A stretch of DNA of 9,651 nucleotides from a virus (IMGVR_UViG_2585427793_000010), one strand, 5' to 3'; positions 1-9,651 are shown, counted from the first letter of the stretch. Numbers and translations are program-made. Notes: generated from the sequence alone by a model not told the origin.

Positions 1-1158
1 ATGCTCACCGTTAAGCAGATTGAAGCAGCAAAGCCGAAAGAAAAACCATACCGCCTTCTCGATGGTAATGGCCTGTACCTTTATGTCCCTGTGTCAGGGA
101 AAAAGGTATGGCAGCTTCGCTACAAGATTGACGGTAAGGAGAAAATCCTGACCGTCGGAAAATATCCGCTTATGACTTTGCAGGAGGCAAGGGATAAAGC
201 ATGGACTGCGAGGAAAGACATCTCAGTTGGCATCGATCCTGTAAAGGCGAAAAAGGCTTCGTCTAACAACAATTCCTTTAGTGCGATTTACAAGGAATGG
301 TACGAGCACAAGAAGCAAGTATGGTCAGTAGGGTATGCAACTGAACTTGCCAAAATGTTTGACGACGACATTTTACCTATCATTGGCGGCCTTGAAATTC
401 AGGATATTGAGCCGATGCAACTGCTGGAAGTAATCCGCAGGTTTGAAGATCGCGGTGCAATGGAACGAGCCAACAAAGCACGCAGAAGATGCGGCGAGGT
501 TTTCCGTTACGCTATTGTCACCGGAAGGGCTAAATATAACCCGGCACCTGACCTTGCTGACGCCATGAAGGGATACCGCAAGAAGAACTTCCCGTTTCTT
601 CCTGCAGACCAGATCCCGGCATTCAACAAAGCACTGGCAACATTTTCAGGAAGTATCGTATCGCTCATTGCGACCAAAGTTTTACGCTACACAGCCCTAA
701 GAACGAAAGAGCTTCGTTCCATGCTATGGAAGAACGTCGATTTTGAAAATAGGATTATCACCATCGACGCCAGTGTGATGAAAGGACGCAAAATTCATGT
801 GGTTCCTATGTCAGACCAGGTAGTTGAACTTCTCACTACGCTAAGCTCCATCACCAAACCAGTCTCAGAGTTTGTTTTTGCCGGGCGCAACGATAAGAAG
901 AAGCCAATCTGCGAGAACGCGGTACTGCTTGTGATCAAACAAATCGGCTATGAGGGTCTGGAAAGCGGTCACGGATTCAGGCATGAATTCAGCACGATTA
1001 TGAACGAGCACGAATGGCCTGCTGACGCTATTGAAGTGCAACTGGCACATGCAAACGGCGGATCTGTGCGTGGGATTTACAACCATGCTCAGTATCTCGA
1101 TAAACGCAGAGAAATGATGCAATGGTGGGCGGACTGGCTTGATGAGAAGGGGGAGTGA
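1..1158 (+). CDS. intS: Prophage integrase, P4-type tyrosine recombinase
   Basis: 385-aa ORF. N-terminal arm-binding-like region (MLTVKQIEAAKPKEKPYRLLDGNGLYLYV). C-terminal catalytic signature candidates: R in TALRTKELRS, HxxR in GHGFRHEF, and Y in GIYNHAQYLDKRRE. Confidence 0.95.
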   Translation: MLTVKQIEAAKPKEKPYRLLDGNGLYLYVPVSGKKVWQLRYKIDGKEKILTVGKYPLMTLQEARDKAWTARKDISVGIDPVKAKKASSNNNSFSAIYKEWYEHKKQVWSVGYATELAKMFDDDILPIIGGLEIQDIEPMQLLEVIRRFEDRGAMERANKARRRCGEVFRYAIVTGRAKYNPAPDLADAMKGYRKKNFPFLPADQIPAFNKALATFSGSIVSLIATKVLRYTALRTKELRSMLWKNVDFENRIITIDASVMKGRKIHVVPMSDQVVELLTTLSSITKPVSEFVFAGRNDKKKPICENAVLLVIKQIGYEGLESGHGFRHEFSTIMNEHEWPADAIEVQLAHANGGSVRGIYNHAQYLDKRREMMQWWADWLDEKGE

Positions 1159-1310
1159 GCGACCTTAACAACTATCGAATAGCACAAAGTCTTGCAATCC
1201 AGTGCAAAGCTTTGTGTGTATAAGTTTTGTCTCATCAACCACAGCAAGTATCGATCGATTAAGACTTGGATGATAGACTTCATTCCTTTGATTATTAGCT
1301 GATAGAAGAA
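1159..1310 (+). promoter_or_regulatory. Upstream regulatory region of the gtr operon; promoter not resolved
   Basis: 152-bp intergenic region. Contains inverted repeat TTGCA-N7-TGCAA (1192-1208), a TATAAG -10-like hexamer (1219-1224) and the 10-bp palindrome ATCGATCGAT (1250-1259) carrying the only GATC. No well-spaced -35/-10 pair found by eye. Confidence 0.3.
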
Positions 1311-1673
1311 ATGTTAAAGCTATTTGCAAAGTACACCTCTATTGGTGTGCTGAACACCCTTATACACTGGGTGGTTTTTGGTGTTTGTATCTATGTCGCG
1401 CATACAAACCAAGCTCTTGCAAACTTCGCAGGTTTCGTTGTGGCTGTGAGCTTTAGCTTCTTCGCGAATGCAAAATTCACATTCAAGGCATCGACTACAA
1501 CGATGCGCTACATGCTATATGTTGGGTTCATGGGGACACTGAGTGCTACTGTTGGATGGGCTGCTGATAGATGCGCACTTCCCCCGATGATAACTCTTGT
1601 CACCTTCTCCGCCATCAGCCTGGTGTGCGGTTTCGTCTATTCAAAGTTCATTGTCTTTAGGGATGCGAAATGA
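1311..1673 (+). CDS. gtrA: GtrA-family small membrane protein, bactoprenol-linked glucose flippase
   Basis: 120-aa hydrophobic ORF, first of a gtrA-gtrB-gtr(type) triad; its stop overlaps the next start (ATGA at 1670-1673). Synonym yfdG in K-12. Confidence 0.9.
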
Positions 1674-2590
1674 AGATATCTCTTGTAGTTCCTGTCTTCA
1701 ATGAAGAAGAAGCGATACCAATTTTTTATAAAACGGTACGTGAATTCGAAGAATTGAAGTCATATGAAGTGGAAATCGTTTTCATAAATGACGGCAGCAA
1801 AGACGCTACGGAGTCAATCATTAATGCTCTGGCTGTTTCAGATCCTCTAGTTGTTCCGCTGTCATTTACACGCAACTTTGGTAAAGAACCAGCATTGTTT
1901 GCAGGGTTAGACCATGCAACCGGGGATGCGATAATCCCAATTGATGTTGACCTGCAAGACCCGATTGAGGTTATTCCTCATCTTATTGAAAAATGGCAAG
2001 CAGGTGCTGATATGGTTCTTGCTAAAAGATCTGACCGCTCAACTGATGGACGCCTGAAGCGAAAAACGGCTGAGTGGTTCTATAAGCTCCACAATAAAAT
2101 AAGCAATCCTAAAATTGAAGAGAATGTTGGTGATTTCAGGCTGATGAGCCGTGATGTTGTCGAAAATATTAAACTTATGCCAGAACGAAACCTTTTCATG
2201 AAAGGTATTCTGAGCTGGGTAGGAGGAAAGACAGATATTGTTGAATACGTGCGAGCGGAAAGAATTGCTGGAGATACAAAATTTAATGGATGGAAACTTT
2301 GGAATTTAGCACTTGAGGGTATTACAAGCTTTTCCACATTCCCTCTTCGCATCTGGACATACATAGGGTTAGTGGTAGCCAGTGTAGCATTTATTTATGG
2401 GGCGTGGATGATTTTAGATACTATCATATTTGGAAATGCTGTTAGGGGATATCCTTCACTACTTGTTTCAATACTGTTTTTAGGTGGAATTCAGATGATT
2501 GGAATAGGAGTATTAGGTGAATATATTGGACGCACATACATTGAAACCAAAAAACGCCCGAAATACATCATCAAGAGAGTCAAAAAATGA
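1670..2590 (+). CDS. gtrB: Bactoprenol glucosyltransferase, GT2 family
   Basis: 306-aa ORF. N-terminal GT2 signature ([25 protein letters not shown] as DxD) and C-terminal hydrophobic segments. ATGA overlap with gtrA upstream and with the next gene at 2587-2590. Synonym yfdH. Confidence 0.93.
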
Positions 2591-3918
2591 ATAAAGCAAT
2601 AAAAGTATCATTGTATATATCTTTTGTTTTGATTATTTGCGCCTTATCTAAAAACATAATGATGTTAAATACATCTGATTTCGGAAGAGCCATTAAGCCA
2701 TTAATTGAAGACATACCAGCATTTACATATGACTTACCTTTATTGTATAAATTGAAAGGTCATATTGATTCAATTGATAGCTATGAGTATATAAGTTCAT
2801 ATAGTTATATTTTGTATACATACGTCCTGTTTATTAGCATTTTTACTGAATATCTTGATGCTAGGGTGTTATCGTTATTTCTAAAAGTAATATATATTTA
2901 TTCATTATATGCGATATTTACTTCATATATAAAAACAGAAAGGTATGTAACTTTATTTACATTCTTTATTTTAGCTTTTCTTATGTGTTCTTCATCAACA
3001 CTGTCAATGTTTGCATCATTCTATCAAGAGCAAATAGTTATAATTTTCCTTCCATTTTTGGTGTATTCATTAACATGCAAAAACAATAAATCTATGCTTT
3101 TGCTATTTTTTTCGTTGCTAATAATATCTACTGCTAAAAATCAATTTATATTAACCCCACTAATAGTGTATTCATATTATATTTTTTTTGATAGACACAA
3201 ACTAATTATTAAATCTGTAATATGCGTGGTGTGCTTGCTTGCGTCAATATTTGCAATATCTTATTCAAAAGGTGTTGTTGAATTAAATAAGTACCATGCA
3301 ACATACTTCGGTAGTTATCTTTATATGAAAAACAACGGGTATAAAATGCCATCGTATGTTGATGATAAGTGTGTTGGGTTAGATGCCTGGGGTAATAAAT
3401 TCGACATATCATTTGGCGCAACCCCAACAGAAGTTGGAACGGAATGTTTCGAATCTCATAAAGATGAAACGTTTTCGAATGCACTCTTTTTATTGGTTAG
3501 CAAACCAAGCACCATCTTCAAACTTCCATTTGATGATGGTGTGATGTCTCAGTATAAAGAAAATTATTTCCATGTATATAAAAAACTACACGTAATATAT
3601 GGAGAATCAAACATACTAACGACTATTACTAACATAAAAGACAATATATTTAAAAACATTAGATTTATATCATTGTTATTATTTTTTATTGCTTCTATTT
3701 TTATTAGAAATAATAAAATAAAGGCATCTTTATTTGTAGTATCTCTTTTTGGAATATCTCAATTTTATGTGTCATTTTTCGGGGAAGGATATAGAGATTT
3801 AAGCAAGCATTTATTTGGAATGTATTTTTCGTTCGACCTTTGCTTATACATAACAGTCGTTTTTTTAATTTATAAAATAATTCAAAGAAATCAAGACAAT
3901 AGCGATGTAAAGCACTAA
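2587..3918 (+). CDS. gtrS: Serotype-specific O-antigen glucosyltransferase, polytopic membrane protein
   Basis: 443-aa highly hydrophobic ORF in the third position of the gtr triad. Markedly AT-rich (about 28-30% GC by eye) compared with gtrA and gtrB, typical of horizontally acquired type-specific gtr genes. Synonym yfdI. Confidence 0.85.
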
Positions 3919-3926
3919 GTTTAAAT

Positions 3927-3948
3927 TGCGCGCCAATCATGGCGCGCA
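3927..3948. terminator. GC-rich hairpin between the convergent gtrS and tail-fibre-fragment ORFs; possible bidirectional terminator
   Basis: Perfect 8-bp stem TGCGCGCC / GGCGCGCA with 6-nt loop AATCAT, 9 nt after the gtrS stop and 5 nt beyond the stop of the minus-strand ORF ending at 3953. No strong U-tract on either side, hence low confidence. Confidence 0.3.
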
Positions 3949-3952
3949 CAAG

Positions 3953-4282
3953 CTATAATACCAACCTAATTTCTCCTCCTCTTAGAGTGACTATATCTCC
4001 TGATAGAATTGCGGTATTGACTATCAAATGCCCTGATTCGTTGTTTATTGTAATATCTCCTCTATCTGCAGACGATAACTTAAATGCATCATTGCCCACA
4101 ACAAACCCCCTCCAGAACCAAGTGCTGATATTATCATCAACAGTGATAGATACATATACTAACTGATTATCGTTATAAGTGATTCCTGTCTTATACTTAA
4201 CATAAGGACTTCCACTTTGATTCTCGATAGACACATAACATCCAGGGGTTATGTTTGTATGCGTCCCGCGACTATCGCCCCA
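3953..4282 (-). pseudogene. Tail-fibre-like C-terminal fragment, AT-rich and N-terminally truncated
   Basis: The minus-strand frame is open for about 109 codons (stop on the plus strand at 4283-4285) in about 35% GC DNA, where stop-free runs are improbable. Product is beta-rich and N/G/S/T-rich (…ITINNESGHLIVNTAILSGDIVTLRGGEIRLVL), as in fibre tip domains. GTG start at 4234 has no good RBS. Family assignment is inference. Confidence 0.3.
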
Positions 4283-4561
4283 TTAACGCCATACGATAAA
4301 TGGGATGGTGAGAAATGGGTGACGGATACCGAGGCACAGCATAGCGTCGCAGTAGATGCAGCAGAAGCACAGCGCCAGTCGCTGATTGATACTGCAATGG
4401 CTTCCATTAGTCTGATTCAACTGAAATTACAGGCTGGGCGGAAGCTGATGCAGGCAGAGACCTCCCGACTTAACACTGTGCTGGATTACATTGACGCGGT
4501 GACGGCAACAGATACCAGCACCGCGCCGGATGTCATCTGGCCTGAACTGCCGGAGGAGTAG
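4217..4561 (+). pseudogene. tfaS: Tail fibre assembly protein fragment, N-terminally truncated
   Basis: C-terminal two-thirds of a lambda-Tfa-like protein (…YDKWDGEKWVTDTEA…TDTSTAPDVIWPELPEE). ORF begins at TTG 4217 with an internal ATG at 4259; Tfa-like sequence starts only at about 4262, coinciding with the GC-content breakpoint. Confidence 0.7.
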
Positions 4562-4973
4562 GCCATTCAATATCTGGCGCACTGGAAGTATCGACCAGCT
4601 CCAGTGCGTCCAGATAATCCAGCCACAAATTATATTGCGCCAGTTCCTCACCTTTCAGACGACCAATAGCCGCTTTACCAGCCCATTGTTTACTGTTCAT
4701 ATAATCGTTGGCCTGATTAATCAATTGCTGCTTTTTCAGTTCGGCTGCAGCAATCTGTTCCTCATGTGTTGGTGGTGGAATTTCAGACCATGCAGGAAAA
4801 CCATTTTCTCCAGCGATACGGATTTTTCCTTTCGGCGGTAATCCGGAAAACTCAATATACACTTGCTCATCAACTTCAACAGCATCATCTGGCCATGAGC
4901 CAGCTTGCGTGTAATCCTCTTTCATCTCCAAGGGATAGAAAGAGTTTGTAGTCGCGGAATATATGTAATTCAT
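4533..4973 (-). CDS. yfdK: Tail fibre assembly protein (Tfa family), full length
   Basis: 146-aa ORF with Tfa-type C-terminus (…VDTSSAPDIEWPTPPAVQAR). GGAG RBS 6 nt upstream of the ATG at 4973. Its 3' end overlaps the tfaS 3' end tail-to-tail by 29 bp. Confidence 0.85.
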   Translation of the reverse strand: MNYIYSATTNSFYPLEMKEDYTQAGSWPDDAVEVDEQVYIEFSGLPPKGKIRIAGENGFPAWSEIPPPTHEEQIAAAELKKQQLINQANDYMNSKQWAGKAAIGRLKGEELAQYNLWLDYLDALELVDTSSAPDIEWPTPPAVQAR

Positions 4974-4999
4974 TTTTCACTCCATAAAGTTAAAAGAAA

Positions 5000-5641
5000 T
5001 TAATACCCTAATGCGAAAAATGAAGCACCGATACCGGGTACGCCTGCTCTGGAAATAAATTTCACCGGGTCCTGGTTATAACCGGCACAAGCTATATAGC
5101 CAACATTTGCACTGCCGGGAGTGTAATCCTGAGTCGCAAATACCCGCAGACATCTATTCGGAAATGCAATCGGAAAATAGGTTACTGTGTCCTGAGACGT
5201 CAGCGGAACATCAATTGGCCCCCATTGAATAATTAAACCGGATGGCAATTTTTGATATCCAGGAACTGAAGCAGAAAGCATAAAACTACCCATATCAGGT
5301 ATCTGATTCGCCCCTGTCCCTACATTTCTTTTAGCCGCTTCTCCCAAACCAAGGTTTTCGAGAGCCTTTTGCACCGTGCCGTCCAATTTGATATCGCCAA
5401 ACGGATTCTTGCGGCTTAACAGCAGCGCACGAAGCGCGGTAAGCAGCTGGTCATGCCGCCCCTTCTCCAGGCTGGCACCGGAGGCCTCCACAACGCTGCA
5501 AAGCTCCTCCTGCAACATGTCAAAGTAGTCATCATCCAGATCGGTGGCAGGCGTGCCGGTCTGGGGGTTACCACGGGTAAAACCGTTCTTACCCGCGCCG
5601 AACTTATCCTTCTGCGCGGTTTTCGTGTCTATACGATGCAT
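5000..5641 (-). CDS. yfdL: Tail fibre protein, short or rearranged
   Basis: 213-aa ORF immediately upstream of yfdK on the same strand (fibre then tfa order). The ATG at 5641 is preceded by GGAG with a 6-nt spacer, supporting the long form over the internal Met-42 start (172 aa). Fibre-like C-terminal region (…[19 protein letters not shown]…). Confidence 0.65.
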
Positions 5642-5644
5642 GGA

Positions 5645-5845
5645 TTACTCCGGATATTTAAAAATTACGTAGGTATGCGACGGGCAGAGTTTGTTAAGCA
5701 CACACTCGACAACGGTGTCACCCCAGATACGCAGTGCGGAATCACAGGGATCGCCACATGTCATCCAGGTGGTGTTGGCGGCGGCTGGCATGTTGACCTG
5801 CCAGTAATACCGCCATTCCGGCGCATTCACAGCGTCAGTAGGCAC
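5645..5845 (-). CDS. Hypothetical small protein upstream of and coupled to yfdL; possibly a gene fragment
   Basis: 66-codon ORF with GTG start. Its TAA stop lies 3 nt before the yfdL ATG, and the yfdL RBS (GGAG) sits in its last codons. No recognisable motifs. An in-frame stop lies immediately upstream, so it cannot be longer. Confidence 0.35.
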
Positions 5846-5847
5846 TC

Positions 5848-6144
5848 ATGTTAAAGCAGGTGTATGAAATGAAAGTCCAGATTTTAAACAATAACTGTGA
5901 AGTCGTTTGGTCATACGACATAGCCGCCCCTGTAGATCAGAGCGGCGATAGCTGGACCAATGGGAAACATCAGATTATGGCTGGAGTTGTGTTCTCTTTA
6001 CGCCGTGCTTTGGAACAGGCTGAAGTATTTCCATCAGACCCTGAATGGAAATGGCCTTTTTCTATTTGTCCAAATTCGGAGAGCACATTTCAGAAAATTG
6101 GTCAGAAAGTCGCACTCGAAGAGCATCAGCCAACTGTTTCCTGA
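5848..6144 (+). CDS. Hypothetical ORF; questionable
   Basis: 98 codons from ATG 5848 (alternative ATG at 5869 with AGGTG 9 nt upstream). No long minus-strand frame exists across 5846-6061. Its 3' end overlaps the convergent 81-codon ORF by 83 bp, so at most one of the pair is probably fully genuine. Confidence 0.2.
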   Translation: MLKQVYEMKVQILNNNCEVVWSYDIAAPVDQSGDSWTNGKHQIMAGVVFSLRRALEQAEVFPSDPEWKWPFSICPNSESTFQKIGQKVALEEHQPTVS

Positions 6145-6307
6145 TTTTTTCAGGTAACTCGTCGGCATCGCAGAAACAACAACGCTCGATCATGTTGAAA
6201 GCCGATTCGTAGAACTGTTTCTGCTGAGTGTCGCTGAGACAGGAAAAGAGCGACGTTACGATGATTTTATTAATTGCATTATCAAGTTCTTTTTCATCAA
6301 AAGTCAT
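6062..6307 (-). CDS. Hypothetical 81-aa protein with a Cys cluster, first gene of the leftward unit
   Basis: ATG at 6307 preceded by AAGGAA RBS (6-nt spacer) and an in-frame TAA four codons further upstream, so the ORF is complete. Product MTFDEKELDNAINK…ERCCFCDADELPEK…; no HTH recognisable. Transcribed divergently from the yfdP operon. Confidence 0.5.
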   Translation of the reverse strand: MTFDEKELDNAINKIIVTSLFSCLSDTQQKQFYESAFNMIERCCFCDADELPEKIRKQLADALRVRLSDQFSEMCSPNLDK

Positions 6308-6560
6308 TTGATTTTCCTTTTATGTATACGGGCTTAAAAGGATACCACCGAGCCTGAAGTGGTGAAAAGACAGGCACATAACAGCTAAGTATTTTCAACC
6401 AAAGAGAATCCTTAGCGTTGTGGTGAATGCGGCTCAGCGCACGCGGGTTAAGGTTGAGGCTGACAGTCGACCTTCTGTGGATACCCACCCGTCTGGTGTG
6501 CAACCTTCGCCAGGCACCGGGAGGCACCCGGCACCACAACTTTATGCTGTGTGTAGTCCT

Positions 6561-6607
6561 GGCGGTACCAGTTTGTGCCCTTGCTTCCGGCTGGTACCGT
6601 CCTTTTT
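6561..6607 (+). terminator. Terminator-like hairpin with T5 tract inside the GC-rich intergenic region
   Basis: Arms CGGTACCAG (6563-6571) and CTGGTACCG (6591-6599), extendable to 11 bp with one G-U pair, followed by TCC then TTTTT (6603-6607). The 19-nt loop lowers confidence. Confidence 0.25.
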
Positions 6608-6744
6608 ACAAAACAGAGAAGAGCATCACCGGACGACGGGCTCATAACCCAATCCATCCGGGCGGCTGCCACCGCAGGTGTTCTTCTCTGTTTTGTGGAG
6701 AAACTAATCGGCCTTGCAGCGTCGATATGATGAGGAGCAGCAAA

Positions 6745-7107
6745 ATGGCTAGCGAACGCAGTACTGATGTGCAGGCATTTATCGGGGAGCTGGACGGCGG
6801 CGTATTTGAAACCAAAATCGGCGCAGTTCTCAGTGAAGTCGCTTCCGGTGTGATGAACACGAAAACCAAAGGTAAGGTCTCACTCAACCTGGAAATCGAA
6901 CCATTTGATGAGAACCGTCTGAAAATCAAACACAAACTCTCATATGTTCGCCCGACTAACCGTGGGAAAATTTCCGAAGAAGACACCACCGAAACGCCGA
7001 TGTATGTCAATCGCGGTGGTCGCCTGACTATTCTGCAGGAAGACCAGGGACAATTACTGACTCTTGCCGGTGAGCCTGACGGAAAACTCCGCGCAGCAGG
7101 TCATTAA
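6745..7107 (+). CDS. yfdP: Conserved prophage protein of unknown function, first gene of the rightward operon
   Basis: 120-aa product from ATG 6745, preceded by GAGGAG (6732-6737) with a 7-nt spacer. The 106 in-frame codons upstream (from 6427) are Arg/Cys-rich low-complexity read-through of GC-rich DNA and are judged non-coding. Confidence 0.8.
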   Translation: MASERSTDVQAFIGELDGGVFETKIGAVLSEVASGVMNTKTKGKVSLNLEIEPFDENRLKIKHKLSYVRPTNRGKISEEDTTETPMYVNRGGRLTILQEDQGQLLTLAGEPDGKLRAAGH

Positions 7108-7172
7108 TATCATTCTTAATTAACTAATTATTTATCTCATCACTGAATATCTTAATATAGTGAGGACTTATT

Positions 7173-7997
7173 ATGTCTCAGAACTTAGACGCAACCGCAA
7201 TTAATCAAATCCATGCCCTTATTTCTGCTCAGGGTGTTAATGAAATTATCAGTAAGATTGGTGCCGATGCTGTGGCATTGCCTGAGAATTTCCGCATTCA
7301 TGATCTGGAAAAATTTAATTTAAATCGCTTCCGTTTCCGTGGTGCGCTTTCCACTGCCAGCATCGATGACTTTACCCGTTATTCTAAAGATCTTGCAGAT
7401 GAAGGCACCCGCTGCTTTATCGATGCTGATAATATGCGTGCCGTCAGTGTGCTTAACCTGGGTACTATTGATGAACCAGGTCACGCAGATAACACCGCCA
7501 CTCTCAAACTGAAAAAGACAGCACCGTTCTCTGCCCTGTTGTCTGTTAACGGCGAGCGTAACTCCCAGAAATCACTGGCAGAATGGATTGAAGACTGGGC
7601 CGACTACCTTGTGGGCTTTGATGCTAATGGTGACGCCATTCAGGCAACAAAAGCGGCTGCGGCAATCCGTAAAATCACGATTGAAGCAAACCAGACCGCT
7701 GATTTTGAAGATAATGACTTCAGCGGCAAACGCTCCCTGATGGAATCTGTCGAAGCGAAGACCAAAGACATTATGCCAGTGGCATTTGAATTTAAATGCG
7801 TTCCGTTTGAAGGTCTGAAAGAACGTCCGTTTAAATTACGCCTCAGCATTATCACTGGCGATCGTCCTGTACTGGTTCTGCGCATTATTCAGCTGGAAGC
7901 GGTGCAGGAAGATATGGCTAACGAATTTCGTGATCTGCTTGTTGAGAAATTCAAAGACAGCAAAGTAGAAACCTTTATTGGTACTTTCACCGCCTGA
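7173..7997 (+). CDS. yfdQ: Conserved prophage protein of unknown function; DUF2303-like by recollection
   Basis: 274-aa ORF with GAGGA RBS 6 nt upstream of the ATG. Acidic, soluble-looking protein with no catalytic motif recognisable by eye. Confidence 0.88.
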
Positions 7998-8009
7998 TTT
8001 CATTACTGC

Positions 8010-8031
8010 AAATGCCCCTGCGGGGGCATTT
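8010..8031 (+). terminator. Intrinsic terminator-like hairpin between yfdQ and yfdR
   Basis: AAATGCCCC-tgcg-GGGGCATTT: 9-bp stem with GC-rich core, 4-nt loop and A-tract/U-tract arms, followed by AU, 13 nt after the yfdQ stop. Short U-run, so probably partial or bidirectional. Confidence 0.45.
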
Positions 8032-8124
8032 ATGGAAACGTAATTAACTCAATAATCACCGGATGGTGAGGGCTTCCTTTTACCCAAACTCAGCGCGGTG
8101 CAGCGCATATACGTGGAGAACAAA

Positions 8125-8661
8125 ATGTCATTTATTAAAACTTTTTCCGGGAAGCATTTTTATTATGACAAGATAAATAAAGACGACATCGTGATTAACG
8201 ATATCGCGGTTTCCCTTTCAAATATCTGCCGCTTTGCCGGTCATCTTTCTCACTTCTACAGTGTCGCCCAACATGCGGTGCTTTGCAGCCAGCTGGTGCC
8301 GCAGGAATTTGCTTTTGAAGCATTAATGCATGATGCAACAGAAGCGTATTGCCAGGACATCCCCGCACCACTGAAACGCCTTCTTCCTGACTATAAACGG
8401 ATGGAAGAAAAAATAGATGCAGTAATCCGTGAGAAATACGGGTTACCTCCTGTTATGAGCACGCCAGTGAAATATGCCGATCTCATTATGCTGGCAACCG
8501 AACGCCGTGATCTCGGGCTTGATGATGGCTCTTTCTGGCCTGTACTGGAAGGCATCCCGGCAACAGAGATGTTCAACGTGATTCCACTGGCACCGGGTCA
8601 TGCCTACGGGATGTTTATGGAACGTTTTAACGATTTATCGGAGTTACGCAAATGCGCATGA
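8125..8661 (+). CDS. yfdR: HD-domain phosphohydrolase, YfbR-like 5'-deoxynucleotidase family
   Basis: 178-aa product from ATG 8125 (GGAG RBS, 6-nt spacer); the track ORF starts at an upstream GTG 8098. HD signature visible: H in SVAQHAV, HD in ALMHDATEAYCQDIP, downstream Asp in ADLIMLATERRDLG. Confidence 0.88.
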   Translation: MSFIKTFSGKHFYYDKINKDDIVINDIAVSLSNICRFAGHLSHFYSVAQHAVLCSQLVPQEFAFEALMHDATEAYCQDIPAPLKRLLPDYKRMEEKIDAVIREKYGLPPVMSTPVKYADLIMLATERRDLGLDDGSFWPVLEGIPATEMFNVIPLAPGHAYGMFMERFNDLSELRKCA

Positions 8662-9014
8662 ATGTTTTCGAAATGGAAGGGTTTCTTCGCGGGAAATGTG
8701 TACCGCGAGATCTGAAAGTGAACGAAACAAATGCTGAGTACCTGGTACGTAAATTCGACGCGCTTGAAGCTAAATGTGCGGCACTGGAAAACAAAATAAT
8801 ACCAGTGTCAGCTGAACTGCCACCAGCAAATGAAAGTGTTCTGTTATTTGATGCTAACGGAGAAGGCTGGCTGATTGGCTGGCGTTCTCTCTGGTACACC
8901 TGGGGACAAAAAGAAACCGGAGAATGGCAGTGGACATTTCAGGTTGGGGACCTTGAAAACGTCAATATCACTCACTGGGCAGTAATGCCAAAAGCACCGG
9001 AGGCTGGAGCATAA
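8652..9014 (+). CDS. yfdS: Conserved prophage protein of unknown function, Trp-rich C-terminus
   Basis: 120-aa ORF. Start overlaps the yfdR stop (ATG 8652, alternative ATG 8658 forming ATGA), with GGAG at 8640-8643, indicating translational coupling. Confidence 0.85.
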   Translation: MRMNVFEMEGFLRGKCVPRDLKVNETNAEYLVRKFDALEAKCAALENKIIPVSAELPPANESVLLFDANGEGWLIGWRSLWYTWGQKETGEWQWTFQVGDLENVNITHWAVMPKAPEAGA

Positions 9015-9319
9015 TGACCACATTTACCAATAAAGAACTGATTAAAGAAATCAAAGAACGAATCAGCAGCCTAGAGGTTCGAGACGATATTGAGCGCCGT
9101 GCTTATGAAATCGCACTCGTATCTCTGGAAGTAGAGCCAGATGAACGCGAAGCCTATGAATTATTCATGGAAAAGCGTTTCGGTGACTTAGTAGATCGTC
9201 GGAGAGCAAAAAACGGCGATAACGAATACATGGCATGGGATATGACTCTCGGTTGGATCATCTGGCAGCAACGAGCTGGTATCCATTTTTCAACAATGTC
9301 ACAACAAGAGGTGAAATAA
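9014..9319 (+). CDS. yfdT: Conserved prophage protein of unknown function
   Basis: 101-aa ORF. TAATG stop-start overlap with yfdS and GGAG RBS with 5-nt spacer. Confidence 0.85.
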   Translation: MTTFTNKELIKEIKERISSLEVRDDIERRAYEIALVSLEVEPDEREAYELFMEKRFGDLVDRRRAKNGDNEYMAWDMTLGWIIWQQRAGIHFSTMSQQEVK

Positions 9320-9375
9320 TAGAGCCATACAGCCTCACACTCGATGAGGCCTGTCAGTTTCTTAAAATATCCTGA
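9235..9375 (+). pseudogene. ypdJ: Excisionase/AlpA-like HTH fragment, truncated
   Basis: 46-codon ORF overlapping the yfdT 3' end in another frame. Only the segment after the yfdT stop (9322-9372, EPYSLTLDEACQFLKIS) looks protein-like and resembles the start of an Xis/AlpA helix-turn-helix; it stops before the recognition helix. Confidence 0.45.
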
Positions 9376-9415
9376 TCTACCATCGCCGTCATAGAGCGTA
9401 TTTTTATTACCTGAT

Positions 9416-9431
9416 TTGCAGGTTCGATTCC
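9416..9431 (+). other. tRNA T-arm-like 16-mer (TTGCAGGTTCGATTCC), isolated fragment
   Basis: Contains the canonical T-loop motif GGTTCGATTCC but no complementary 3' T-stem, acceptor or anticodon arm nearby. Lies between the excisionase fragment and torI. From memory it matches the T-arm of tRNA-Arg (argW); unverified. Confidence 0.4.
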
Positions 9432-9450
9432 CTATTCGGAGATAGCACTC

Positions 9451-9651
9451 ATGCAACACGAACTACAGCCTGATTCACTGGTTGATTTGAAATTCATCAT
9501 GGCTGATACTGGCTTTGGTAAAACCTTCATCTATGACCGGATTAAGTCAGGCGACCTGCCAAAAGCCAAAGTTATCCACGGGCGAGCAAGATGGTTATAT
9601 CGTGACCATTGTGAATTCAAAAATAAGCTCTTAAGCCGCGCCAATGGGTAA
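9451..9651 (+). CDS. torI: Excisionase (recombination directionality factor) and TorR response-regulator inhibitor
   Basis: 66-aa ORF recognised as TorI (MQHELQPDSLVDLKFIMADTGFGKTFIYDRIKSGDLPKAKVIHGRARW…). GGAGA RBS 8 nt upstream. Winged-helix Xis-like pattern. Confidence 0.93.
   Translation: MQHELQPDSLVDLKFIMADTGFGKTFIYDRIKSGDLPKAKVIHGRARWLYRDHCEFKNKLLSRANG

Follow-up and report, generated by a model that had tools for sequence, protein, structure and literature searches.

Comparative analysis points to a composite origin for the yfdP–yfdT early operon of a cryptic lambdoid prophage

[quoted passage not shown] The yfdP–yfdT genes of Escherichia coli fit the same description, and overexpression inhibits host DNA replication in both systems (PMC10834534; PMC4776307). 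The passage of PMC10834534 that cites Sergueev 2002 links the lambda region to this inhibition and to cell-cycle synchrony. DUF551 is found both in YfdS and in the V2 variant of Ea22. Unlike the yfd block, however, lambda exo-xis has no homologues of YfdP, YfdQ or YfdR, and whereas the yfd block acts on DnaA domain I, the corresponding lambda gene and target are not named in the literature consulted.

The yfdP–yfdT genes are named, annotated in RefSeq, and the subject of one functional paper (Noguchi and Katayama 2016, PMC4776307) and a 2025 comparative note; the original prediction of an operon of unknown function was therefore out of date. In the 2016 experiments YfdR bound domain I of DnaA through an interaction dependent on Phe46, and multicopy yfdQ and yfdR together with either yfdS or yfdT inhibited initiation at oriC in vivo and suppressed hda-185 overinitiation. 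The inhibition holds in wild-type, dnaAcos, seqA, DARS and diaA backgrounds, and an excess of YfdQRST in extracts inhibits replication from oriC in vitro. YfdR alone inhibits moderately, with YfdQ plus YfdS or YfdT needed in vivo; yfdQ is required for the phenotype and yfdP is dispensable. YfdQ, YfdS and YfdT showed no strong affinity for YfdR or DnaA in pull-downs. Deletion of yfdQRST leaves initiation and hydroxyurea resistance unchanged, and the functional data all come from multicopy overexpression, which the authors concede might be an artefact (PMC4776307).

Bacillus subtilis SirA, E.coli Dps and the competitor DiaA are also DnaA domain I binders that inhibit initiation; the Phe46 on which YfdR depends belongs to the surface used by DiaA and DnaB, and SirA needs the equivalent Phe49. 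The lambda P protein is likewise a phage inhibitor of host initiation, but binds DnaA domain III (PMC4776307). YfdR has no sequence relationship to SirA, Dps, DiaA or lambda P.

The window analyzed here is a 9,651-nucleotide stretch of viral DNA. As predicted, it contains five intact, co-oriented open reading frames on the + strand between positions 6745 and 9319, a segment with 100% nucleotide identity to E.coli K-12 MG1655, C600 and J53 that is annotated in K-12 as yfdP, yfdQ, yfdR, 'phage protein' and yfdT. The genes are yfdP (6745–7107, 120 residues), yfdQ (7173–7997, 274 residues), yfdR (8125–8661, 178 residues), yfdS (8652–9014, 120 residues) and yfdT (9014–9319, 101 residues). A mechanical reading frame for yfdR opens at a GTG at 8098, but the ATG at 8125 has a GGAG 6 nt upstream. 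Reading the junctions base by base bore out the overlaps that had been proposed: yfdR stops at the TGA at 8659–8661, so that the yfdS ATG at 8652 gives a 10-nt overlap and an alternative ATG at 8658 a 4-nt ATGA overlap, and the yfdS stop (TAA, 9012–9014) has one base in common with the yfdT ATG (9014–9016). At its distal end the operon is bounded by the excisionase gene torI (9451–9651, + strand; so annotated in RefSeq and matching the phrog_66 excisionase family).

These genes make up the early-left (pL) operon of CPS-53/KpLE1, a lambdoid prophage of the SfV/ST64B type that is cryptic here. The proposed placement of the genes in a pL-type operon reading toward xis agrees with their position in the two intact related prophages examined, where the order is cI, a small open reading frame, yfdP-Q-R-S-T, xis and int, and in phage SfV, where the equivalents of yfdP–yfdT are orf32 to orf28, with identical order and spacing, flanked by cI and xis-int-gtrABV. 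At least 80% of the yfdP–yfdT block is found in 1936 of 5426 complete E.coli genomes, or about one third.

The upstream part of the operon is altered in this window, whose center (5580–6725) differs from the K-12 reference. Homology to the intact prophages begins at ∼5836–5840, about 10–30 bp ahead of the first open reading frame past cI, a 98-residue frame at 5848–6144 on the + strand that is equivalent to SfV orf33 and has matches in the intact relatives (phrog_3195, E = 6e-70). A short distance ahead of this frame is the deletion junction, where the side of the frame meets tail-fibre DNA; the junction is absent from all complete E.coli genomes compared. The K-12 reference instead carries yfdM, yfdN, yfdO and a spacer bound by SrsR ahead of yfdP. 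The region expected to hold pL is missing, and a promoter search found no sigma-70-like site on the + strand. Regulation of yfdP by SrsR as in K-12 was considered and rejected, the SrsR boxes of the K-12 yfdO/yfdP spacer being absent from the window. Because the region expected to contain pL and its operators has been deleted, we infer that the genes of this remnant are probably expressed at most weakly and are largely silent, which would fit the absence of a deletion phenotype.

A structured, GC-rich leader precedes yfdP (6390–6745, + strand), with a folding energy of -146.9 kcal/mol (z = -4.7) and an inverted repeat at 6608–6632/6672–6696. Positions 6395–6610 match the Rfam small RNA STnc100 at 39.5 bits (E = 6e-6), under the gathering score of 47. 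None of eight diverse relatives reaches the gathering score at this locus, and the match is therefore confined to the E.coli/Shigella type.

To compare gene content across prophages, we used a scan of species-representative genomes, since a neighborhood scan of viral contigs returned only copies that were 99–100% identical and was useless for co-occurrence. The resulting set holds 82 YfdQ loci, 80 of them from species-representative genomes, and the position of YfdP could be tested in 81. YfdP lies directly upstream of YfdQ in all 81, and the two genes are also adjacent in three unrelated phages. YfdR follows the pair in 61 of the 82 loci, whereas YfdS is present in 8 and YfdT in 6, and the full five-gene block is restricted in this set to the SfV-like lineage of E.coli and Shigella. 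The original prediction of an enzyme locked to three or four small partners does not hold at this scale: P, Q, R, S and T do not co-occur as a block, and true coupling is limited to yfdP and yfdQ. Independent occurrence of homologues in unrelated contexts, which had been named as evidence against a single module, is what we find for YfdR, YfdS and YfdT; YfdP and YfdQ stay paired.

Judged from these sequence comparisons, yfdP–yfdT would be put together from three units with separate evolutionary histories, not a single locked machine of five genes. One unit is the obligately paired yfdP–yfdQ with its conserved hairpin, widespread in temperate and Xanthomonas/Vibrio phages of Gammaproteobacteria. 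Another is yfdR, a predicted HD-domain dNMP phosphohydrolase gene that phages appear to have acquired independently. The third comprises yfdS and yfdT, two mosaic accessory genes that appear to be interchangeable and to belong to the lambdoid 'ea' type.

The pairing of yfdP and yfdQ is also evident from phage records, of which 184 match YfdQ and 181 match YfdP with a nearly equal breakdown by organism; the pair spans 1825 sequence clusters. YfdQ is an acidic, stand-alone single-domain protein (family median pI 4.9) that matches DUF2303 (PF10065) over residues 7–272 with 311.9 bits against a gathering score of 26.6. YfdP belongs to a family whose Pfam label, PF27127, is a precomputed one borne by its homologues, the model itself not being part of the local Pfam copy. 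YfdP is predicted to fold into a single long helix and a sheet of three strands, with a highly conserved C-terminal tail (residues 78–115) for which the prediction has low confidence. Searches of PDB libraries found no fold relative for either protein. A YfdQ homologue from the Xanthomonas phage CP2 has been deposited as PDB 9o7m, with 36 chains; this entry is not in the fold libraries used, and a literature search yielded no publication on it. The neighboring CP2 proteins ORF38 (YfdP-like) and ORF36 have no PDB entry.

A GC-rich hairpin with a 9-bp stem begins 13 nt past the yfdQ stop (8010–8031, + strand; -17.5 kcal/mol, z = -3.0). A stable hairpin follows yfdQ in 78 of the 82 loci, with differing stem sequences, compared with 25 of 82 control windows inside yfdQ. 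The element at 8010–8031 probably serves as a weak terminator or as an RNA-stabilizing structure and closes the yfdP–yfdQ cassette at its 3' end.

YfdP and YfdQ are present without YfdR in phages of Xanthomonas, Vibrio, Marinobacter and Hahella, and the pair must therefore have a YfdR-independent function. Its neighbors are RecT, exonuclease and SSB genes in phage TL-2011c; Erf, exonuclease and SSB genes in Xanthomonas CP2; DnaQ-like and YqaJ-like exonuclease and SSB genes in a Vibrio phage; and genes for an Rv2179c-like exonuclease and a MazZ-like dATP/dGTP pyrophosphohydrolase in enterobacterial prophages. In every case the early genes around the cassette serve replication, recombination or nucleotide metabolism.

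The distribution of YfdR is different. Its homologues are found in 333 phage records with an organism breakdown unlike that of YfdP and YfdQ, and include proteins of Bacillus, Caulobacter and Rhizobium phages that lack the pair. In agreement with the original prediction, YfdR is the sole product of the segment with an enzymatic signature, the HD motif being found in no other. YfdR matches phrog_318, 'deoxyribonucleoside 5' monophosphate phosphatase', with an E-value of 1.5e-109, and the HD protein Atu1052 (PDB 2gz4) with an E-value of 1e-13 and the HD motif aligned; H50, H69, D70, D78 and D119 are at least 95% conserved among 58 aligned sequences, the window protein included. E.coli YfbR and Atu1052 have the H...HD...D metal-binding motif and fold family in common with YfdR, and RefSeq names YfdR a 5'-deoxynucleotidase. 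However, it scores just under the cut-off of the Pfam YfbR-like family (PF12917; 24.3 bits against 25.9) and far under that of the NCBIfam equivalog PRK03826 (YfbR; 19.9 bits against 122), and because both cut-offs are missed YfdR would be a distant HD-superfamily relative rather than a YfbR equivalog. Compared with YfbR, its reported nucleotide affinities are much lower, and it has the additional activity of DnaA binding (PMC4776307).

YfdS and YfdT are mosaics. YfdS combines an Eae-type N-terminal module (residues 1–45) with a C-terminal DUF551 (PF04448, residues 50–117), the latter a borderline match at 22.2 bits against a cut-off of 22. It matches phrog_583 over its full length, and phrog_614 and phrog_14548 through its N-terminus only. 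YfdT matches phrog_660, phrog_5117, phrog_60 and phrog_3323, in each case partially, and its N-terminal 42 residues are common to proteins of Stx phages and HK022 annotated as Ea22, EaA or DUF551. The 224 phage records matched by YfdS include 41 with at least 80% coverage, and the 196 matched by YfdT include 13; most of the matches of both proteins span only the N-terminal ∼45 residues and are to proteins that annotators named Eae, EaE, Ea22 or EaA. There is no detectable similarity between YfdS and YfdT, and similarity was thus rejected as the cause of their genetic redundancy.

The reading of the locus that we favor, and consider somewhat more probable than its negation, is that these are early phage proteins that take over host DNA replication and nucleotide metabolism. 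YfdR would dock onto the Phe46 surface of DnaA domain I, shared with DiaA and DnaB, and, acting with YfdQ and either YfdS or YfdT, would block initiation at oriC; its catalytic site may also hydrolyze dNMPs. The replication inhibition ascribed to lambda exo-xis would be a parallel, by analogy. Both replication takeover as the native phage role and a contribution of YfdP and YfdQ to it are what we infer, starting from the published binding and overexpression results. Some observations sit awkwardly with takeover: yfdP, the tightest partner of yfdQ, is the gene that can be dispensed with, and the single-gene phenotypes (H2O2 and MMS sensitivity for yfdQ, H2O2 sensitivity for yfdS) are not obviously related to replication.

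These same phenotypes bear on two of the alternatives. As cited in PMC4776307, deletion of yfdQ or yfdS raises H2O2 sensitivity (Wang 2010) and deletion of yfdQ confers weak MMS sensitivity (Rooney 2009). The former would suit genes that, like lambda Ea22 and the exo-xis frames, tune the lysis–lysogeny decision or a stress response, for example induction under oxidative stress, with replication not the target as such. The N-terminal modules that YfdS and YfdT have in common with proteins annotated as Eae, Ea22 or EaA, together with DUF551 in YfdS, point the same way, and YfdQ production in a strain that carries phage SW1 led to the release of plaques (bioRxiv 10.1101/413146). But such tuning leaves unexplained the strict pairing of yfdP and yfdQ in Xanthomonas CP2-type and Vibrio phages, where repressor, excisionase and integrase are not annotated in the stretch examined; we consider it improbable as a separate account, and it is compatible with takeover rather than exclusive of it. 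The MMS phenotype would suit a second alternative, in which YfdP–YfdQ, with or without YfdR, is an accessory of recombination, repair or end processing (DNA-end protection or nuclease modulation) that works beside a Rec module or replaces it. The pair adjoins exonuclease, single-strand annealing protein and SSB genes in Xanthomonas, Vibrio and E.coli phages; it is also present in LLS and ST64B phages without a recognizable Rec module (PMC12315714) and in both intact prophages examined, neither of which has an annotated recombinase. The 36-chain deposit of the YfdQ homologue suggests a large oligomer. By analogy only, annealing proteins typically form large ring or filament oligomers. However, neither YfdP nor YfdQ resembles a recombinase, Gam, Ku or a nuclease in sequence or fold, and both lack homology to the members of lambdoid Rec modules (Redbeta, RecT, Erf, Sak, Sak4; Exo, YqaJ; Gam, Abc2); the pair is found alongside complete Rec modules in TL-2011c and ArgO145 and is not universal among Rec-less phages, and the acidity of YfdQ argues against direct DNA binding. 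We therefore regard an accessory role of this kind as unlikely. Its strongest form, in which YfdP–YfdQ would be an unrecognized recombinase replacing the missing Rec module of SfV-like prophages, was rejected as the main reading given the coexistence with RecT or Erf, exonuclease and SSB in TL-2011c and CP2 and the lack of fold similarity; the authors of PMC12315714 likewise judge a recombinase role unlikely.

Lambdoid early-left operons hold exclusion and anti-restriction genes, such as lambda sieB and ral, and the original prediction had raised, as a hypothesis, a role in superinfection defense or counter-defense. YfdR and its small partners would manipulate the dNTP/dNMP pool against superinfecting phages or host nucleotide-depletion defenses, the host keeping them for its own benefit. 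The intact and conserved HD catalytic motif, the dNMP phosphatase label of the YfdR family in PHROGs, the second nucleotide-pool enzyme (the MazZ-like protein) in related pL operons and the frequency of the block in E.coli are all consistent with this proposal. On the other hand, the partners of YfdR vary between loci, its substrate affinity is reported to be low (PMC4776307), and its wide distribution in large Bacillus, Caulobacter and Pseudomonas phages favors a role in phage replication over host defense. No report of a phage-sensitivity phenotype was found in the literature, and PADLOC-DB 2.0 has no family match (E ≤ 0.01) to YfdP, YfdQ, YfdR, YfdS, YfdT or the upstream 98-residue frame. 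Considering also the absence of an effect of the yfdQRST deletion on initiation or hydroxyurea resistance (PMC4776307), the defense proposal is unsupported rather than refuted, and we hold it to have little chance of being correct.

The yfdP–yfdQ pair is the main lead that remains, ranking with the most broadly conserved uncharacterized early-gene cassettes of Gammaproteobacteria phages. We tentatively suggest, as a possibility that we would not yet call probable, that it is a distinct two-gene early phage module in which YfdQ forms a large homo-oligomer, as the 36 chains of 9o7m suggest, and YfdP uses its conserved tail to dock on this assembly. Together they would target a conserved host component, for example the replication-initiation/helicase-loading machinery or a DNA-end-processing enzyme. 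If true, this would represent a new class of host-takeover factor common to temperate and Xanthomonas CP2-type/Vibrio phages of Gammaproteobacteria. Knowing the mechanism of the pair would clarify how Rec-less lambdoid phages take over host DNA metabolism and would also explain structure 9o7m. The small-gene-before-larger arrangement was also considered as a toxin–antitoxin system and set aside, there being no Pfam or PADLOC toxin–antitoxin match and no reported toxicity of YfdQ overproduction. A 'yfdPQ' operon appears in a table of PMC9181523, and the cassette often follows the repressor gene, opening the left operon or lying close to its start.

The block yfdP-yfdQ-yfdR-yfdS-yfdT (6745–9319, plus strand) lies in a CPS-53/KpLE1-type cryptic prophage that runs from intS (1–1158) through gtrA, gtrB and a serotype-specific gtr gene (1311–3918) and minus-strand tail-fibre remnants (to 5641) and then, on the plus strand, to a 98-aa ORF (5848–6144), a GC-rich stretch without a convincing ORF, the block itself and the excisionase gene torI (9451–9651). 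Direct reading of the junctions shows the original observation of five co-oriented genes, the last three coupled by short overlaps, to be exact to the base. yfdP (6745–7107), yfdQ (7173–7997) and yfdR (8125–8661; stop TGA 8659–8661) are followed by yfdS (8652–9014), whose start is either ATG 8652, with GGAG 8 nt upstream and a 10-nt overlap with yfdR, or ATG 8658, with a 4-nt ATGA overlap, and by yfdT (9014–9319), whose ATG shares one base, the last, of the yfdS stop TAA (9012–9014). The annotated yfdP ATG at 6745 is backed by the start positions of homologues. An in-frame upstream extension of yfdP listed as a 226-aa ORF (6427–7107, plus strand) and a 122-aa antisense ORF overlapping yfdP (6642–7010, minus strand), for which a family search gave no match, both look spurious.

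This early operon is a composite, and we regard its identity and composite nature as nearly certain. Iterated profiles of YfdP, YfdQ, YfdR, YfdS and YfdT were run against all ORFs of 82 loci; the sample comprised 80 loci encoding YfdQ relatives (identity from 100% down to 41%, one genome per species) and two intact E. coli prophages. yfdP lies directly upstream of yfdQ on the same strand at 81 of the 81 loci that include upstream DNA, with an apparent gap of ≤66 nt in all loci except one, and this adjacency extends to Marinobacter, Hahella, Photobacterium, Kistimonas and Pontibacterium. yfdR is found at 61 of the 82 loci, mostly as the next gene after yfdQ, and is absent from every non-Enterobacterales locus among them; yfdS and yfdT occur at 8 and 6, respectively. 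In Xanthomonas phage CP2, Vibrio phage 24E35.2 and Stx phage TL-2011c, too, the profiles place YfdP as the direct upstream neighbour of YfdQ, and a profile search detected YfdR in none of the three. In the annotated phage collection, YfdQ (184 records) and YfdP (181) have nearly identical organism breakdowns; the 333 YfdR records come mainly from Bacillus, Caulobacter, Rhizobium, Vibrio, Pseudomonas and Stenotrophomonas phages. YfdS and YfdT, which show no similarity to each other, match 224 and 196 phage records with at least 80% protein coverage in just 41 and 13. Most of the others are confined to the N-terminal ∼45 residues and fall in proteins of HK022, P22-like and Stx phages whose annotation is Eae, EaE, Ea22, EaA or DUF551.

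The expected co-occurrence of all five genes thus holds for yfdP and yfdQ, which are always paired, and fails for yfdR, yfdS and yfdT, which are not constant; the counts leave no fixed block and speak against a locked five-gene module. Given this distribution, the tight R–S–T overlaps are a local E. coli/Shigella trait and provide no evidence of an obligate complex. Between yfdQ and yfdR, five species (loci L094, L095, L097, L110 and L134) encode a protein of ∼262 aa that carries tandem repeats of 'TGITSLPENLSVGG(S/Y)L', marking the Q–R junction as a site of gene insertion.

A hairpin with a 9-bp GC-rich stem (AAATGCCCC-TGCG-GGGGCATTT, −17.5 kcal/mol) is located at 8010–8031 (plus strand), 13 nt past the yfdQ stop. 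Stable hairpins follow the yfdQ stop at 78 of the 82 loci, in many genera and with differing stem sequences, versus 25 of 82 for control windows inside yfdQ. This recurrence marks yfdP–yfdQ as a discrete cassette, in agreement with the 'yfdPQ' operon listed in PMC9181523, and the hairpin is likely a conserved terminator or stabiliser ending a yfdP–yfdQ transcription unit.

This universal cassette, together with a 36-chain structure of a YfdQ homologue, is the sole point worth pursuing. A PDB sequence search returned one entry, 9o7m ('YfdQ Protein', 274 residues, 36 chains of that sequence), which matches YfdQ with E 2e-44 as a single sequence and 7e-59 as a profile and shares 98.8% identity with a protein from the CP2-like Xanthomonas phage MET23-P3. 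The 36 copies suggest a large homo-oligomer. The fold libraries searched do not include 9o7m, our literature search found no paper for it, and the PDB holds no entry for the CP2 YfdP-like protein or the CP2 protein downstream of YfdQ. The predicted YfdP structure combines a helix and a three-stranded sheet with a C-terminal tail that is strongly conserved but modeled with low confidence, as is typical where folding takes place on a partner; a structural search with YfdP gave no meaningful matches.

In the two intact E. coli prophages, the gene order is cro (leftward), cI, a 91-aa ORF, a 'frameshifted hypothetical', yfdP-Q-R-S-T, xis and int. The same order is found in SfV (cI, terminator, orf33, terminator, gap, orf32 to orf28, xis, int, gtrABV). 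This shared order identifies the block as an SfV-like lambdoid phage's early-left operon and upholds the pL-type position originally assigned to it.

The block itself is already known and is not a discovery. Its description as being of unknown function was only partly true because Noguchi and Katayama 2016 (PMC4776307), who published replication-inhibition data, and the comparative literature already describe it. [quoted passage not shown] Deletion of yfdQRST had no phenotype in initiation or hydroxyurea resistance. The authors also pointed out the SfV homologues and noted that the overexpression effect could be an artefact (PMC4776307). The best-supported activity of the block would be interference with host replication initiation through a YfdR–DnaA interaction, an effect that requires YfdQ and is aided by YfdS or YfdT, with YfdR probably retaining nucleotidase activity besides.

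Several rival functions can be weighed against this mechanism. One is modulation of the stress response or of the lysis–lysogeny decision, on which the H2O2 sensitivity bears; yfdQ and yfdS deletions conferred H2O2 and MMS sensitivity according to Wang 2010 and Rooney 2009, as cited in PMC4776307. For a role in defence or the nucleotide pool, the enzymatic signature noted in YfdR stands: YfdR is an HD-superfamily protein in which H50, H69, D70, D78 and D119 are at least 95% conserved among 58 aligned sequences, and it matches Atu1052 (PDB 2gz4; E 1e-13) and PHROG 318 'dNMP phosphatase' (E 1.5e-109). [quoted passage not shown] Separately, YfdR is ruled out as a YfbR equivalog (NCBIfam 19.9 bits versus a cut-off of 122; Pfam 24.3 versus 25.9).

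A recombination or end-processing accessory is the remaining rival, and across hosts the pair does sit among early DNA-metabolism genes. Directly upstream of it in TL-2011c are a Gam-like protein, RecT, an exonuclease and SSB; in CP2, a replication initiator lies upstream and a DUF1351-like protein (a weak, sub-threshold match), Erf, an exonuclease, an endonuclease and SSB lie downstream. The Vibrio phage has YqaJ-like and DnaQ-like exonucleases upstream and SSB downstream, and enterobacterial prophages encode an Rv2179c-like 3'-5' exonuclease, a MazZ-like dATP/dGTP pyrophosphohydrolase, a ParB-HTH protein and a methyltransferase farther along the operon. In Psychrobacter phage Psymv2, a repressor gene and one small ORF again precede yfdP–yfdQ. 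A published comparison recorded the pair with or without a Rec module, and its authors thought unrecognised recombination proteins unlikely (PMC12315714). Interference with replication initiation is the reading we prefer, with moderate confidence because the functional data all come from overexpression and the pair occurs in many phages without YfdR. A parallel comes from lambda, whose exo-xis region sits at the equivalent place in the operon and has been associated with cell-cycle synchrony and host replication inhibition (Sergueev 2002, as cited in PMC10834534).

The block is 100% identical to K-12 MG1655, C600 and J53, and at least 80% of 6745–9319 is found in 1936 of 5426 complete E. coli genomes. 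Window positions 1–5579 and 6726–9651 are 99.95% and 100% identical, respectively, to a K-12-like chromosome; the center (5580–6725) differs, standing in place of 1461 bp with K-12 yfdL'-yfdM-yfdN-yfdO. Compared with intact prophages, 5200–5840 is 100% identical to tail-fibre and ymfQ genes, and 5840–6725 is 97.5–99.5% identical to the cI-proximal part of those of SfV-like type. Near 5840, tail-fibre/ymfQ DNA is fused straight to the cI-proximal ORF of an SfV-like prophage. A search of 5426 complete E. coli genomes did not turn up this junction; the sequence is either a natural deletion variant of CPS-53 that has escaped sampling or a chimera. Similarity to the intact prophages starts just about 10–30 bp ahead of the first post-cI ORF, so the interval expected to carry pL and its operators is gone. 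A simple promoter scan found no sigma-70-like sites on the plus strand of 5600–9651, and the window lacks the SrsR boxes that PMC9181523 describes in the K-12 yfdO/yfdP spacer. Because the expected pL region is missing, expression of the operon in this remnant is probably close to silent, judging from the sequence.

The GC-rich yfdP leader (6390–6745, plus strand) has an unusually stable fold (−146.9 kcal/mol, z −4.7) and carries a 25-nt inverted repeat (6608–6632/6672–6696). The Rfam prophage sRNA family STnc100 gives a sub-threshold match at 6395–6610 (39.5 bits versus 47, E 6e-6), and its gathering score was reached in none of eight diverse relatives. RefSeq annotates this stretch in relatives as 'frameshifted hypothetical protein', and the SfV counterpart is located after two annotated terminators. 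The leader could be an sRNA or a cis-acting element. In a Proteus terrae prophage (L139), a tRNA-like match (7347–7415, plus strand; 35.9 bits) just upstream of the yfdP homologue occupies the place of the E. coli structured leader.

In K-12 CPS-53, the RyeG RNA is antisense between yfdI and tfaS and encodes a toxic 48-aa protein (PMC7498339). The corresponding interval is present in the window at about 3920–4230, where Rfam gave no match. A 46-aa ORF (9235–9375, plus strand; ending '...LTLDEACQFLKIS') overlaps the yfdT 3' end and resembles what is left of the N-terminus of an SfV-type excisionase (ypdJ in K-12). SfV shows the same kind of overlap between xis and orf28.
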